A DNA stretch of 64,000 bases, from positions 128,319 through 192,318 of the forward strand of contig CAWBMF010000004.1 in the NCBI GenBank assembly GCA_963789835.1, read 5' to 3'. The translations under genes and the position numbers were made by a program. Below the pieces are notes generated by a model. That model was not told where the DNA came from and made no database searches. It saw only the letters and a program-made list of their open reading frames with translations. Each line of letters opens with the position of its first letter. The first letter of the stretch is position 1. Source of the DNA: an uncultured delta proteobacterium (GTDB lineage Bacteria; Desulfobacterota; Binatia; Binatales; Binataceae). Below are positions 1 to 21,507 of this stretch, piece after piece.

Positions 1-1020
1 CATACGCCGTGCGGCACGCAAGTCCTGCGCAACTTCGCACTGAAAATCTGCGGCGAGCGCGGTGATTGGACGATGGCGAATTTCGTCGAGACCAAACTCG
101 CGGAGATTCGCAAGCAGGTCGGGCCGACCGACAAGGTCCTGATGGGACTGTCGGGCGGCGTCGATTCCTCCGTCGCGGCCGCGCTGATACATCGCGCGAT
201 CGGCTCGCGGCTGCATTGCGTGTTCGTCGATACGGGATTGTCGCGCGCGGGCGAGCGCGAGCGGATGGAGAATGCGTTCGCGGGCCAGCTCGGAATCGAT
301 CTGAAGGTGACCGACGCCTCGGAACTATTTCTGTCGCGACTGGCAGGCGTGCTCGACCCCGAGCAGAAGCGGCGAATCATCGGCCATACGTTCATCGACG
401 TGTTTGAATCCGAGGAAGTAGTGAAGGGCGCGAAATTTCTCGGACAGGGAACGCTCTATCCCGACGTGATCGAATCCGTGTCGTTCAAGGGTCCGTCGGC
501 GGTGATCAAGAGCCATCATAACGTCGGCGGATTGCCGGAGCGGATGCGCCTCGAGCTGGTCGAACCACTGCGCGAGTTGTTCAAAGACGAAGTGCGCGAA
601 GCGGGACGGAAGCTTGGGCTGGCGCCGGAAGTTGTCGATCGCGAGCCGTTTCCGGGACCGGGGCTGGCAGTGCGAATCGTCGGCGAGGTGACGCGCGAGC
701 GGCTCGATCTGCTGCGTCGCGCGGACGCGATCGTCATGGAAGAAACGGCGGCCGCCGGCTTCGGGCTAAAATTGTGGCAGGCGTTCGCGGTGCTGCTGCC
801 GCTCAAGACGGTCGGCGTGATGGGCGACGGGCGCAGCTACGAAAGCGTGATCGCGATTCGCGCGGTCGAGTCGATGGACGGGATGACTGCGGATTGGGCG
901 CGGCTGGATCCGGCGTTTCTCGCGCGCGTCTCGAGCCGAATCACCAACGAAGTGAAGGGCGTCAACCGCGTCGTTTACGACATCACGTCCAAGCCGCCGG
1001 CGACGATCGAGTGGGAGTGA
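1..1020 (+). CDS. guaA: GMP synthase (glutamine-hydrolysing), C-terminal ATP-pyrophosphatase and dimerisation domains; 5' end lies outside the window
   Basis: PP-loop SGGVDSSV. Codons 1-72 in the same frame encode the conserved end of the GATase domain (..[13 protein letters not shown]). C-terminus ..KPPATIEWE is typical of GuaA. Confidence 0.9.
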
Positions 1021-1022
1021 CG

Positions 1023-2468
1023 GTGACGGTTCGCACGCGTTTCGCGCCGAGCCCGACCGGCTCGCTGCACATCGGCAATGTTCGCTCGGGACTGTTCGCG
1101 TACCTGTATGCGCGACACCACCACGGGCAGTTCGTGTTGCGCATCGACGATACGGATCGCGAGCGCTCGACGAAGCAGTCACTCGAGGAAATCCTCGCGG
1201 ATCTGAAATGGCTCGGGATGGAGTGGGACGAAGGCCCGCCCGATCCGGAATATTTTCAGACCAATCGAGTCGAGCGGCATCGTGAAGCCGCGCTGAAACT
1301 GCTGCGCGAGCGCAAGGCGTATCCGTGCTACTGCTCGGCCGAAGAACTCGACGCCAAGCGCAAGCAGGCCGAGCGCGAGCATCGCCGGCCGGTTTACGAT
1401 CGCAAATGCCGCGGGCTCGACTTCCCCGCCGACCTGCCGTTGCCCGACAAATCCGCGGGCCGCAACTACACGATTCGTTTCGCGATGCCGCTCGACGGCG
1501 AGACGGTGGTCGATGACCTGGTCAAGGGCCGTATGGTGTTTCAGAATTCCGAGCTCGACGACTTCATCATCGTGCGTTCCGACGGCTCGCCGATTTACAA
1601 CTTCGCGAGCATCCTCGACGACGTCGACATGCACATCACGCATATTGTTCGCGGCGACGACCACGTCTCGAACACACCACGTCAGATGCAGATGGCGTAT
1701 GCGCTCGGGTTCACGCCGCCGGCCTTCGCACATTTGCCGCAGGTGCTCGGGCCCGACGGCTCGCCGCTGTCGAAGCGTCACGGCGCGACTTCGGTGATTG
1801 CGTATCGCGAGAACGGTTACTTCCCCGAGGCGATGCTGAACTATCTCGCGCGGCTTGGATGGTCGCATGGCGATCAGGAAATCTTCTCGAAGGATGAGCT
1901 GATCAACTTCTTCGGCTTTGAGGCGTGTGGGAAATCGGCCGGTGTATTCAACGCCGAGAAATTGCTCTGGCTCAATTTCCATTACCTGAAGGAGCGGCCG
2001 ATCCCGAAGCTGGCAGCCGAGGTTAAGCCGTTCATCGCGCAGCGCGGGTGGACGATTCCGGCCGACGACGCGTGGCTTGAAAGGGCGGTCGCGACGCTGC
2101 ATGAGCGCGCCAAGACGCTGGTAGAGCTGACGGACTTTTTGTCGTTTTACGTGAAGGATGATATCGAGATCGATTCGAAGGCGTCAGCGAAATTCCTCAA
2201 GCCGGAAATCGCGGAGCCGCTGCGCGCGTTGGCCGCTGAGCTTGAGGCACACGAGGGCGAAGTCTCCGAGGCGTCGGTGCAGGCGGTGTTCGAGTCTGTC
2301 CTGGCGAAATTCAGCCTCAAGCTCGGACAGCTTGCGCAGCCGGTCCGCGTCGCGCTCACCGGCGGCACCGTCAGTCCGGGGATTTACGAGGTGATCGCGG
2401 TGCTCGGCAAACGTCGCACCGTCGATCGCCTGAACGCTGCCGTTCGCCGAATCGAGCAGCCCGCCTGA
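1023..2468 (+). CDS. gltX: glutamate--tRNA ligase
   Basis: The N-terminus in the ORF 774..2468 frame reads RFAPSPTGSLHIGNVRSGLF (HIGH-region context of class I GluRS); the KMSKS-type LSKRHG motif follows. Likely a GTG start near 1017-1023 immediately after the guaA stop. Total ~482 aa. Confidence 0.9.
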   Translation: MTVRTRFAPSPTGSLHIGNVRSGLFAYLYARHHHGQFVLRIDDTDRERSTKQSLEEILADLKWLGMEWDEGPPDPEYFQTNRVERHREAALKLLRERKAYPCYCSAEELDAKRKQAEREHRRPVYDRKCRGLDFPADLPLPDKSAGRNYTIRFAMPLDGETVVDDLVKGRMVFQNSELDDFIIVRSDGSPIYNFASILDDVDMHITHIVRGDDHVSNTPRQMQMAYALGFTPPAFAHLPQVLGPDGSPLSKRHGATSVIAYRENGYFPEAMLNYLARLGWSHGDQEIFSKDELINFFGFEACGKSAGVFNAEKLLWLNFHYLKERPIPKLAAEVKPFIAQRGWTIPADDAWLERAVATLHERAKTLVELTDFLSFYVKDDIEIDSKASAKFLKPEIAEPLRALAAELEAHEGEVSEASVQAVFESVLAKFSLKLGQLAQPVRVALTGGTVSPGIYEVIAVLGKRRTVDRLNAAVRRIEQPA

Positions 2469-15803: not shown

Positions 15804-15911
15804 GGGGCTATGATTCGAATAGGCGGTGCCGCGCGACTGTCTGTTTTGACACGCTTTAGCTTGCCTCTTTGCTGCGAAATGCGATATGAAGGATCCGAGA
15901 GGTCATCGCCG

Positions 15912-16319
15912 ATGAAATCCATGAAATCGATTGCTGTCACCGTGGTCGCGATCGCAGCCCTCTGGACTGCCGGACCTGCCAGCGCCGCAGGCAGAGGTGG
16001 CCACGCTGCCGCCGCTACGCGCGGAGTCGGCAGCGCGAACCGTTTCGCCGGCAGTCGGAATGGAGCGTGGATGAGACAGAACAACCGTCGGTTCGCGACC
16101 TCCTTCGGAGGCTTCCCTTACGGATACGGCGGCTACGGCTACGGGAATGCGGTGTACCAGAATCCCGATGAAGCCGACTGGGCGGAACAGTGGCAGTCGC
16201 TGTACGAGGACAACCACGGCGCCTATGCCAAGTCCACCCTTGAAAATCCACAGGGGCCTGCGCGAATGTGGGAATTTCCGCAAGTGCAGGGGGGCGCGAC
16301 CGTAACCGACGAGCATTAG
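15912..16319 (+). CDS. secreted Gly/Tyr-rich hypothetical protein
   Basis: Signal peptide MKSMKSIAVTVVAIAALWTAGPASAAG. GGFPYGYGGYGYGNAVY low-complexity segment. GAGAGG ribosome-binding site. Confidence 0.5.
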   Translation: MKSMKSIAVTVVAIAALWTAGPASAAGRGGHAAAATRGVGSANRFAGSRNGAWMRQNNRRFATSFGGFPYGYGGYGYGNAVYQNPDEADWAEQWQSLYEDNHGAYAKSTLENPQGPARMWEFPQVQGGATVTDEH

Positions 16320-16387
16320 TCGGATGCGCTGCTTCCGCGGCTCGGCGTCGACCTCAGTCACAATCGATATTTTTTCCCGCATCTAAA

Positions 16388-16437
16388 TAGTGGGCGGGGA
16401 GTGAATCCAACACTCCGACACAACGATTTTTAGTTCC
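16388..16437 (-). repeat. diverged copy of the tRNA-Phe 3' half (distal att-like repeat)
   Basis: TGGGCGGGGAGTGAATCCAACACTCCGACACAACGATTTTTAGTTCCAC versus the tRNA 3' half TGGTGGGCAGGGAGTGAATCGAACACTCGACACAAGGATTTTCAGT. Four substitutions and one insertion. It shares the extra GTTCCAC extension with repeat 2. Confidence 0.7.
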
Positions 16438-16483
16438 ACGTTAACTCCCGACATTTCCAATTCTCCGATTTGCATTAGTGAGC

Positions 16484-16515
16484 TATTTGACGCCGTCAAG
16501 CCGCACTGATAGTTG
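16484..16515 (+). promoter_or_regulatory. putative promoter of cassette A (TATTTGACGC -35-like box plus downstream AT-rich -10 candidate)
   Basis: The same 10-mer TATTTGACGC occurs at the equivalent position upstream of cassette B. A GGGAGG ribosome-binding site lies ~12 nt before the ATG. Confidence 0.35.
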
Positions 16516-16552
16516 AGTCGCGACCGCATTTTATCGGGAGGATGGGTAGAAG

Positions 16553-17020
16553 ATGAATCTGAGAGGGAATCTGGGGAGAATCGCGCTGGCAGTGGGGATG
16601 CTTTTGGTCGTCTCCGGGCCGGCATCGGCAAAATCTAAAAAACAGATTTGCTTCGAGGTAAACTCAAACGAATACCTTTTCGTCGGGAAAATTCCTGGGA
16701 AAAACAAATGCGCCTCGTTTCAAACGGTTGACACGTTCGGCATTTTCCCGGGGTTTATGTCAAACGGTGCAGCCTGTGAAAGCGGGGATGGGTCCACGCT
16801 GTTCTTTACAGCCTCCGACGGCTACTTCTCCGGGCCGGAAACCGTTCAGGGATCACTCGCTACCAGTACCGCTACAGGATCCTGTGCAGATTGTGTCGTC
16901 AGTACCTGCTTCGCGGATACTTGTTCCTTGGTCTTCTGTTCCGGGCAGACGATACCGGCGGACGTGATGTCTGGTCCCGCGAGCCTCTTGTCGAGAGGAT
17001 CATCGATGGGCGGCAACTGA
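16553..17020 (+). CDS. small secreted Cys-rich protein (cassette A)
   Basis: Signal peptide. 10 Cys in the mature part. GGGAGG ribosome-binding site. Weak but recognisable similarity to the cassette B protein (K-C-A-S-F-Q-T vs E-C-I-S-F-G-T; G-A-A-C-E-S-G-D-G-S vs Y-G-C-A-C-D-P-K-G-S). Confidence 0.55.
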   Translation: MNLRGNLGRIALAVGMLLVVSGPASAKSKKQICFEVNSNEYLFVGKIPGKNKCASFQTVDTFGIFPGFMSNGAACESGDGSTLFFTASDGYFSGPETVQGSLATSTATGSCADCVVSTCFADTCSLVFCSGQTIPADVMSGPASLLSRGSSMGGN

Positions 17021-17047
17021 CACTCACCGCGGAATCCTCAAGGTCGG

Positions 17048-17081
17048 CACCGACTGGAGTGTGGCTCCTTTCCAGTCGGTG
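17048..17081 (+). terminator. perfect 10-bp stem-loop downstream of cassette A gene
   Basis: CACCGACTGG..(14-nt loop)..CCAGTCGGTG. A T-run (CTATTTTTTTT) lies ~45 nt further downstream rather than adjacent, so intrinsic-terminator status is uncertain. Confidence 0.4.
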
Positions 17082-17143
17082 CCCGGCCTGGCGATTCGCT
17101 GCGCTGACCAGCTCTCTGACAATCTATTTTTTTTCGGGTCTGC

Positions 17144-17189
17144 TGGTGGGCAGGGAGTGAATCGAACACTCGACACAAGGATTTTCAGT
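17144..17189 (-). repeat. 46-bp perfect direct repeat of the tRNA-Phe 3' half including CCA (proximal att-like repeat)
   Basis: Identical to 18219..18264 (anticodon loop through CCA of the tRNA-Phe gene). Confidence 0.85.
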
Positions 17190-17435
17190 TCCACTATAAG
17201 TCATCCACCATTGTCCGTAAGTTGATTCTATCGACGCTTTCTCAGCAGAGGCAGTCCGCCAAAGTGCGCAATGCCCGCCGATGTTCATCGGCTAGGCTGC
17301 ACCTAGACTGCAGACCCGAGGTTCGCGACACCCGCCTCCGTAACGAATCGCGCGCGTAGAACAGATCGAAGAATACGCAACTGGGCGAAGTGTGGTAGCA
17401 GCGCCGGGCGGCATTGCCGCGAGCGTAGCTCGGGT

Positions 17436-17470
17436 TATTTGACGCAAGCGTGGCGGAATGACATATCAGT
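17436..17470 (+). promoter_or_regulatory. putative promoter of cassette B (TATTTGACGC box)
   Basis: Same 10-mer as upstream of cassette A. GGGAGG ribosome-binding site 11 nt before ATG 17492. Confidence 0.35.
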
Positions 17471-17491
17471 GCGCTGGGAGGAATCAAAACA

Positions 17492-17929
17492 ATGCGTAGA
17501 TCAGTCAGTCTGTTGGTAGTGACATTCTCCGTCTTCGCGGTGAGTTTGCTGGCCATATCGTTCTCGGCCAACGCGGGCGGCAATTGCGAGGGCAAACTTC
17601 TCGGCAACTCTTACGAATGCAACTACGTAAACAGCGAAGGCGGTTCGGGGAGCGAATGCATTTCGTTTGGCACCGGGGTGTTCTCGGTTCATTTCGACGC
17701 CGGGTACGATGGCACAGACGAATATGGTTGCGCATGCGATCCGAAGGGCTCCAAGAAATCGCCTTCGTTCAACGCTTCTTCAAACACCTACCAGTGCACG
17801 TCCCCCTCATCTCCTTCTTATTTGCTGAGTGGAACGATAAAGGGCAAAAAGGTTACTGAACAGGGCCTTGAATCGGACGGCTTCCAATACGTCGAAACCT
17901 GCGAGCTCAGGTCTTCGCCTTGCCCCTGA
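17492..17929 (+). CDS. small secreted Cys-rich protein (cassette B)
   Basis: Signal peptide MRRSVSLLVVTFSVFAVSLLAISFSANA. 9 Cys. Paralogous to the cassette A protein. Confidence 0.55.
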   Translation: MRRSVSLLVVTFSVFAVSLLAISFSANAGGNCEGKLLGNSYECNYVNSEGGSGSECISFGTGVFSVHFDAGYDGTDEYGCACDPKGSKKSPSFNASSNTYQCTSPSSPSYLLSGTIKGKKVTEQGLESDGFQYVETCELRSSPCP

Positions 17930-18218
17930 CCTGAATCGAGACCATTTCGGCTAAGGCGGAGAAAGCCGGGTCTTGCCTAGGCGCAGTTCGGCGAAAGAGG
18001 CGTGTCGCAGGCGGGCGTCCAGCGTCCACTCCAGGAAGTCGATGCGACGACTATCCGCGGCTTGAGCCAGCGGCACGCCTTCATCTTGTCGGCTGTGACC
18101 CCGGTTCCCCAGCGGCCTTTCGACGCATCCGGCAGATTTGAGAATGGACACGCGGCCGGTTTCGAGGCCGTAGGCTGCAACTTAGGCTGCGGGACTCCCT
18201 CAAAAGGGCAAAAAGTGT

Positions 18219-18294
18219 TGGTGGGCAGGGAGTGAATCGAACACTCGACACAAGGATTTTCAGTCCTTTGCTCTACCGACTGAGCTACCTGCCC
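18219..18294 (-). tRNA. tRNA-Phe (anticodon GAA), CCA encoded
   Basis: Reverse complement folds as GGGCAGG-UA-GCUC AGUCGGUA GAGC A AAGGA CUGAAAA UCCUU GUGUC GAGUG UUCGAUU CACUC CCUGCCC A CCA. Very close to E. coli tRNA-Phe in the D and T arms. Confidence 0.9.
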
Positions 18295-21159: not shown

Positions 21160-21507
21160 CCGCCGGAGTGAGTCGGGCGATCGCTTCCCTTAAGTGGGAA
21201 GAGGAAAGTCCGGGCTCCATAGGGCAGGATGGCCGCTAACGGCGGCGCGGAGCGATCCGCGGAAAGTGGCACAGAAAATACACCGCCCGCGAGGGTAAGG
21301 GTGAAATGGTGGGGTAAGAGCCCACCGGCGAGCGAGCGATCGCGCGCGCATGCCAAACCCCATCCGGAGCAAGACCAAATAGGAGGCTGAGCGGCCCGCT
21401 CTTAAGGCCTCGGGTATGGTCGCATGAGCCGCCGAGCAATCGACGGCCTAGAGGAATGATCGCCGCCCGCAAGGGCACAGAACCCGGCTTACAGACTCAC
21501 TCCGGTC
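21160..21507 (+). ncRNA. rnpB: RNase P RNA, bacterial type A
   Basis: Conserved blocks GGAAAGTCCGGGCTCCATAGGGCA (P4 5' side), GTGGCACAGAAAATACACCGCC, GGGTGAAATGGTGGGGTAAGAGCCCACC, GCAAGACCAAATAGGAGG and ACAGAACCCGGCTTA (P4 3' side). P1 pairing CCGGAGTGAGTC / GACTCACTCCGG. T-run immediately downstream. Confidence 0.9.

Follow-up and report, generated by a model that had tools for sequence, protein, structure and literature searches.

In a 64,000-nucleotide stretch of an uncultured Binataceae genome (GenBank assembly GCA_963789835.1, contig CAWBMF010000004.1, positions 128,319 to 192,318; here called the window), two small open reading frames (ORFs), ORF-A and ORF-B, lie beside a tRNA-Phe gene, each within its own short islet bounded by copies of the 3' half of that tRNA. 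An initial annotation had placed both ORFs correctly (they lie on the plus strand) and had read them as cassette cargo encoding two diverged paralogs of no known family. The cassette part of that reading was borne out in that each gene is the cargo of a discrete repeat-bounded unit, and the profile and library searches found no known family for either product. Paralogy fared differently. We think it probable that the two genes represent two separate, unannotated families of secreted proteins and that each is the surviving cargo of a separate, decayed integrative element that had used the tRNA-Phe gene. This would replace a duplicated pair with two independent acquisitions.

Two direct repeats, DR1 and DR2, copy the 3' half of the intact tRNA-Phe gene, and no such tRNA-half match is expected by chance (Table 1). 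DR1 separates islet B from islet A and DR2 closes islet A on its outer side, which puts ORF-B between the tRNA gene and DR1 and ORF-A between DR1 and DR2. GC content drops to 0.49-0.58 between positions 16300 and 17950 from 0.61-0.66 in the flanks; islet A alone spans 0.49-0.58 and islet B 0.53-0.58. No integrase is encoded in this region of the window, and neither islet contains an integrase ORF; what is left is an 18-nt 3' remnant in islet B, the end of a XerC-like tyrosine recombinase. In the related contig L088, an integrase ends in ..ARAFPRA and a stop just before the ORF-B promoter, with its stop at the same relative place as in the window. Downstream of ORF-B is a frame resembling the C-terminal part of an ATP-dependent DNA ligase. 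Its match to PF04679 is weak (17.2 bits against a gathering cut-off of 27.5, over profile positions 66-91 of 94), and it is likely a pseudogene remnant. Because islet B holds both this fragment and the integrase remnant, we read it as what is left of a larger integrative element.

Table 1. Features of the tRNA-Phe locus, in coordinates of the window.
Feature	Position	Strand	Details	Source
tRNA-Phe(GAA), intact, integration target	18219-18294	-	74 bits (RF00005)	ARAGORN; Rfam
DR1, copy of tRNA-Phe 3' half (anticodon loop to CCA)	17141-17189	-	49 nt, 98% identical	
DR2, older diverged copy of tRNA-Phe 3' half	16390-16434	-	about 89% identical, one indel	
Islet A	16435-17140		706 bp; solely ORF-A, its promoter and downstream hairpin	
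Islet B	17190-18218		1,029 bp; integrase remnant, ORF-B, ligase-like remnant	
ORF-A	16553-17020	+	155-aa precursor; mature 129 aa	ORF listing
ORF-A promoter-like site	TTGACG 16487-16492; TAGTTG 16510-16515	+	17-nt spacer	read from sequence
ORF-A Shine-Dalgarno GGGAGG	16536-16541	+		read from sequence
Imperfect inverted repeat 3' of ORF-A	17032-17097	+	27-nt arms, 78% complementary	
ORF-B	17492-17929	+	145-aa precursor; mature 117 aa	ORF listing
ORF-B promoter-like site	TTGACG 17439-17444; CATATC 17462-17467	+	17-nt spacer	read from sequence
ORF-B Shine-Dalgarno GGGAGG	17476-17481	+		read from sequence
XerC-like tyrosine recombinase remnant	17411-17428	+	18 nt; last codons (..AALPRA) and stop	
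ATP-dependent DNA ligase C-terminal-like fragment	17951-18151	-	66-codon frame; PF04679 E = 0.007	

Related contigs showed how the islets are distributed. The window belongs to a Candidatus Binatus/Binataceae genome, and its GshB shares 85-90% identity with the GshB of many metagenome-assembled genomes of this kind. Contigs L001 and L093 are syntenic with the window (amidohydrolases, a small ORF, ORF-A, tRNA-Phe and gshB) and lack exactly the segment 17190-18215, with the breakpoints inside the repeat; L003 carries both islets. In L094, the DR2-ORF-A-tRNA block is retained at 89% identity (the DR2-to-DR1 unit, 16390-17192) between different outer flanks, and the outer flank there is a different islet ending in a third repeat. 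The ORF-B module (17411-17937), which comprises the promoter, the gene and 8 nt past the stop, is 92% identical to copies in L087-L090 and 86% identical to that in L004, all in flanks unrelated to the window. It adjoins PF00589 tyrosine recombinases or their fragments in L087, L088, L089, L004 and L110, and intact PF00589 genes flank the ORF-B homologs in L087 and L088.

Cis-mobilizable elements (CIMEs) are decayed elements that keep only their attachment (att) sites. Since the islets contain no integrase ORF and intact PF00589 genes stand beside ORF-B homologs, we class both islets as decayed and CIME-like. Islet A is probably the older, because DR2 has diverged and the islet is common to relatives whose ORF-A is 69% identical at the protein level, and islet B the younger, because its repeat is near-exact and close relatives lack it. 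Position gives the same order, since a newly arriving element inserts at the intact tRNA and the tRNA-adjacent unit should thus be the more recent. In the series of events that we favor, two different elements would have inserted into the 3' half of the tRNA-Phe gene by site-specific recombination through tyrosine recombinases, and each would have left a direct repeat reaching from the anticodon loop to the CCA end. The element behind islet A would have come first and that behind islet B later, and both would then have lost their recombination genes, with a tandem pair of CIME-like remnants as the outcome.

That elements accrete in tandem and decay into CIMEs is well established for the Streptococcus tandems of integrative and conjugative or integrative and mobilizable elements (PMC5704250), and the ssrA genomic islands of Dehalococcoides follow the same pathway (PMC3146451). 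The window resembles CIME tandems in that direct repeats of the target gene's 3' end follow one another behind an intact copy of that gene, each interval holds low-GC foreign cargo, the inner unit is younger than the outer one, recombination genes are lost or fragmentary, and presence or absence changes exactly at the repeats. It differs in that its units are tiny (706 and 1,029 bp), with one gene each and no integrase left, and in its host, an uncultured Binataceae lineage.

The same tRNA is used elsewhere in the lineage. In the 80 species representatives of Binataceae that were examined, tRNA-Phe usually comes after gshB, and in 8 of them one or two extra tRNA-Phe half-repeats lie 0.7-4.5 kb away with varied cargo. 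We thus identified tRNA-Phe as a recurrent insertion hotspot in the Binataceae. One of the islets there, in L031, is 732 bp long and carries a B-family gene in the opposite orientation; other single-gene tRNA-Phe islets are found in L035 (754 bp) and L014 (1,074 bp). In a scan of metagenome loci, the contigs were mostly too short for context analysis.

Next, we examined the two products. At the N terminus, each has an n-region with two basic residues and a net charge of +2; a hydrophobic core 12 residues long (hydropathy 2.5-2.7) comes next, and the residues at positions -3 and -1 are small (A-x-A). This agrees with the cleavable signal peptides of the initial annotation; neither product has a second hydrophobic segment. 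Heuristic reading places cleavage between ASA and K in ORF-A (signal peptide residues 1-26) and between ANA and G in ORF-B (residues 1-28). A lipobox ([LVI][ASTVI][GAS]C) is absent from both, the first cysteine being preceded by KKQI in ORF-A and by GGN in ORF-B. All full-length homologs in each family retain the signal peptide, and we predict that both are Sec-dependent, signal peptidase I-processed secreted proteins. Each has 8 cysteines, not the 9 to 10 first counted, and all lie in the mature part: residues 33, 53, 75, 111, 114, 119, 124 and 129 in ORF-A and residues 32, 43, 56, 80, 82, 102, 137 and 144 in ORF-B. After export by the Sec pathway and cleavage by signal peptidase I, up to four disulfides, presumably formed in the periplasm, would stabilize each protein outside the cytoplasm.

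The close homologs of ORF-A form 22 clusters at 61-88% identity, and a search with its family hidden Markov model (HMM) recovered 31 representatives at E <= 0.001 among 1.84 billion, nearly all full-length (about 130-170 aa) and with a signal peptide. The wider ORF-A family retains 6 cysteines; five of the eight are invariant and C33 is present in at least 90% of sequences, with C111 and C124 an extra pair confined to the close subfamily. ORF-B has 11 close homolog clusters and, with the family profile, at least 99 clusters, in which each of its cysteines is either invariant or at least 90% conserved. Candidatus Binatus is the sole source name among the ORF-B clusters and, going by the available source names, the family appears specific to Binataceae, an uncultured soil lineage.

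Both genes carry GGGAGG 10 nt before the ATG. The promoter and Shine-Dalgarno arrangement of ORF-A is kept upstream of its orthologs in L001, L093 and L094, and TTGAC(G/C)-N17-(C/G)ATAxx plus GGGAGG was found 5' of seven B-family genes in unrelated contexts. It is strongly supported by these conserved signals that ORF-A and ORF-B are independent transcription units, each with its own sigma-70-like promoter and a strong Shine-Dalgarno sequence. A scan for consensus promoters and terminators did not call the ORF-A promoter-like site and returned nothing useful. The inverted repeat 3' of ORF-A is followed by a T-run (17129-17137), and the two together may be a terminator.

The AlphaFold2 model of ORF-B has a predicted local distance difference test score (pLDDT) of 77.5 overall and 85-95 in the mature part, with a predicted template modeling score (pTM) of 0.67. 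It predicts a mature protein of about 115 residues consisting of a short N-terminal helix and an 8-stranded antiparallel meander beta-barrel, which would make ORF-B a compact, calycin-like protein. The best Foldseek matches in the PDB were de novo 8-stranded barrels (E = 7e-4), GrlR, fatty acid-binding proteins (FABPs) and the NHBA C-domain; against BFVD, the model gave weak, uncharacterized matches only. Predicted export and the modeled barrel are what ORF-B would have in common with calycin-type proteins (lipocalins, FABPs, avidins, GrlR and barrel-shaped periplasmic inhibitors such as MliC/PliC). It differs from them in having no sequence match in Pfam, NCBIfam or the PDB, also with a 43-sequence profile, and in its 8 cysteines, against the zero to two typical of these families. 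The ORF-A model was poor (pLDDT 45.9) and at that low confidence its fold search gave no significant match; its secondary structure is predicted to be all-beta.

Searches of Pfam, NCBIfam, PHROGs and PADLOC with single proteins and deep family alignments gave no match above chance, and PDB sequence-profile searches with both gave none. A viral origin of the two families was considered and dropped, as IMG/VR viral contigs held no relatives of either. The fungal AltA1 family (PF16541) was also considered as a relative of ORF-B, since it too consists of small secreted beta-barrel proteins with disulfides. It was rejected: 2 of 43 family members gave weak matches at chance level (best E = 0.016), ORF-B itself gave none, and no Alt a 1 description was present in the top 50 Foldseek PDB matches.

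Nei-Gojobori estimates of the ratio of nonsynonymous to synonymous substitution rates (dN/dS) agreed with the fast evolution first proposed, ranging from 0.3 to 1.2 for the two genes against 0.02-0.13 for flanking genes in the window-L093 pair. For ORF-A, dN/dS was 0.91 (dS 0.25) against L093 and 0.40 (dS 0.22) against L094. For ORF-B, it was 1.03-1.18 (dS 0.07-0.08) against L087-L089, with 1.09 for the mature part against L087, then 0.63 (dS 0.17) against L004 and 0.32 (dS 0.83) against L091. In the L093 comparison, gshB gave 0.13 (dS 0.16) and the amidohydrolase 0.02 (dS 0.31). For the two ORFs, the ratio of nonsynonymous to synonymous changes differed from that of the amidohydrolase at P values of about 1e-11 to 1e-14. 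Both proteins thus show rapid change on a conserved disulfide scaffold.

Several observations weigh against our reading. Islet A contains no recombinase or pseudogene remnant; the repeats, the low GC content and the behavior of the block are what suggest that it, too, was once a larger element. The homology between DR1 and DR2 runs about 37 nt past the tRNA 3' end (17101-17140 and 16353-16389), making a unit of about 86 nt at about 81% identity, of which only 49 nt are common to the intact tRNA; either the att identity segment of element A held some flank or a duplication contributed. Many B-family genes lie in unremarkable chromosomal surroundings, away from any tRNA or integrase, and one adjoins tRNA-Val. 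The signal peptides were judged by heuristics rather than by SignalP, and the Foldseek TM-scores of ORF-B (0.35-0.6) denote generic fold matches. Finally, dN/dS does not exceed 1 significantly; the values do not demonstrate positive selection, and relaxed constraint would fit them equally well.

That A and B are strongly diverged paralogs sharing one disulfide-rich fold, as first proposed, we consider unlikely, with no detectable relationship between them and the sequence evidence leaving paralogy unsupported. The proteins are of similar size, each with a signal peptide and 8 cysteines, and both are predicted to be all-beta. By eye, both families also show an early cysteine after the cleavage site, C-x-x-F about 20-24 residues on and G-x-x-C...G-S/T about 20-26 residues further, a weak colinear pattern for which we leave a small chance of very remote homology; true tandem B-family paralogs do exist elsewhere (L105 and L106). 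The six motif strings quoted in the initial annotation are all present, yet their colinearity is no better than chance. BLASTP of A against B gave E = 1.1, and its best alignment joined the N terminus of A to the C-terminal half of B, regions other than those that had been paired. With hhalign, the probability was 2.5% for family alignments and 1.7% for deep alignments of 33 and 91 sequences; the latter gave a colinear best hit (residues 17-65 against 19-68, P = 0.029) that lay mostly in the signal peptide and vanished after trimming, when the probability fell to 0.6%. Each family HMM scored at most 7 bits against the other family, and exhaustive searches of large databases never retrieved one family with the other, the homolog lists (31, and at least 99 clusters) having no overlap. 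Cysteine spacing differs despite the equal number, particularly between the C-terminal halves. The genes also sit in islets acquired in separate events, and their inheritance is independent, with A occurring without B in L001, L093 and L094 and B without A in L087-L091 and L004.

On a second alternative reading, the islets would still be active: minimal cassettes of 0.7-1.1 kb, each one gene with its promoter between tRNA-Phe half-sites, captured and excised in trans by a tRNA-Phe-specific tyrosine recombinase encoded elsewhere, much as CIMEs or, more loosely, integron cassettes are. The islets of similar size with single genes and exact repeats at tRNA-Phe (L031, L035 and L014), the presence of the DR2-A-DR1 block as a unit within the different outer flanks of L094 and the polymorphism of islet B exactly at its repeats all speak for this, and CIMEs with att sites are known to be mobilizable (PMC5704250). 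We nevertheless hold it to be decidedly improbable. The pseudogene debris in islet B is typical of decay, the homology of the ORF-B module ends at gene borders and not at att sites, the B-family gene of L031 is inverted relative to the tRNA, and simple homologous recombination between the 49-nt repeats would explain the loss of islet B; no circular junction, trans-acting integrase or attC-like structure was identified. Very improbable, in our judgment, is a broader version in which the Binataceae tRNA-Phe is a docking site for self-promoted single-gene cassettes of 0.7-1.1 kb with 47-49-nt half-sites, moved in trans by tyrosine recombinases and preferring fast-diversifying, disulfide-locked secreted beta-barrels as cargo, with A and B members of one divergent superfamily directed against phages or competitors. 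If true, gene shuffling in this lineage would resemble that of integrons, with a tRNA att site as its basis. The islets do share with integron cassettes their short single-gene units in a tandem array, their repeated boundaries resembling recombination sites and the tyrosine recombinases adjoining ORF-B homologs. Their boundaries are tRNA-Phe 3' halves in place of attC hairpins, and each unit has its own promoter; for these two reasons an integron was rejected. The recombinases next to ORF-B homologs are of XerC-like or phage type, with none identified as IntI, no attC/attI/Pc arrangement was found in the window, and an inverted-repeat scan gave only the hairpin behind ORF-A. There is even less to commend the view that the ORFs are decaying or spurious frames in old island DNA, without a functional product, which we regard as highly improbable. 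In its favor, dN/dS approaches 1 in some comparisons, several database homologs are truncated or frameshifted and the genes lie among pseudogene fragments. Yet full-length ORFs persist across 22 clusters (A) and at least 99 clusters (B), down to 31-47% identity, dN/dS drops to 0.3-0.4 at longer distance and the ORF-B model is a confident one. The homologs keep the frame, the signal peptide and near-invariant cysteines, together with the promoter and the Shine-Dalgarno sequence, so we take the ORFs to be real genes. The frameshifts in homologs P0003, P0018, P0019 and P0033 are probably assembly errors because gshB is split in the same contigs. Least credible to us is a functional two-gene module such as a bacteriocin or toxin with its immunity protein. 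Two small, secreted, cysteine-rich, fast-evolving products encoded side by side on the same strand would suit it, but each gene is found without the other in several genomes, so that the two are not co-inherited, and they have separate promoters with a tRNA-half repeat between them. A membrane-anchored segment of the immunity type is absent from both proteins, and genes for leader cleavage or ABC export are absent from the vicinity. No partner genes, and no matches in PADLOC, PHROGs or the Pfam bacteriocin and immunity families, point to a bacteriocin-immunity or anti-phage defense module.

Under the reading that we prefer, of two unrelated secreted families left behind by two decayed elements, the function of the cargo can be addressed tentatively. 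The likeliest single role, though on balance still doubtful, is that ORF-A and ORF-B bind or inhibit foreign molecules in the periplasm or outside the cell, as suggested by fold class, cellular location, the link to mobile elements and evolutionary rate. With low confidence, we picture exposed surfaces that change fast while the disulfide scaffold is kept, as is expected of proteins that meet phages, competitor enzymes or toxins.

Further observations concern the B family. Right after the stop of B-family genes is a noncoding motif, TGA-nCTGAATCryGAC, often extended to ..TTCATTCAAAACCGC; it occurs at 17930-17965 of the window and in L004, L088, L096, L098, L100, L101, L102, L103 and L107, and it is conserved in different contexts where the proteins are only 40-60% identical. 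The motif prompted us to consider selenocysteine read-through of the ORF-B TGA, which was rejected because L005 has TAA and L096 and L104 have double stops. Two adjacent B-family genes, true paralogs, are present in each of L105 (1422-2410) and L106 (2038-3215). Two different tyrosine recombinases occur by the ORF-B module (L088 245-766, minus strand, and 800-1444, plus strand; L087 2-799, minus strand). One is XerC-like and co-oriented with ORF-B, and the other is divergent, intact in L087 and with a 64%-identical copy in L088, which suggests nested or successive elements at that locus.

Outside the islets, just beyond DR2 on the plus strand, the ORF at 15810-16319 encodes 169 aa, probably with an internal start (MKSMKS...); a signal peptide precedes a mature part rich in Gly and Tyr. 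Pfam and NCBIfam gave no match for it, its GC content is normal, and L001, L003 and L093 carry it in synteny. A third, older islet around this ORF was considered, but a search of the window turned up no additional tRNA-half copy. Small secreted proteins are also encoded in other tRNA-Phe islets or beside ORF-B homologs, in L094 (a 169-aa ORF), L004 (a 169-aa ORF and a 199-aa lipoprotein), L047 (a 240-aa ORF) and L031 (a 297-aa ORF). On the other side of tRNA-Phe in L094 (2888-8227), in place of gshB, are a 525-aa TIR-domain protein, a faint HEPN match and an AF_1680-family protein, in what looks like a defense-island neighborhood at the same tRNA. In the ENA contigs L001 and L003, the gshB and amidohydrolase genes are split into several frames. 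The window also carries a bacterial class A RNase P RNA (RF00010, 298 bits) at 21165-21507 on the plus strand, after gshB, an rsmE-like gene and prmA.

Taken together, these results define two unannotated protein families, with about 31 representatives for ORF-A and at least 99 clusters for ORF-B. The architecture of the locus is a new instance of a well-known genome process, and the cargo proteins are uncharacterized. If these proteins mediate interactions with phages or competitors, they would open a way to study how an uncultured phylum lives among its neighbors in the environment.

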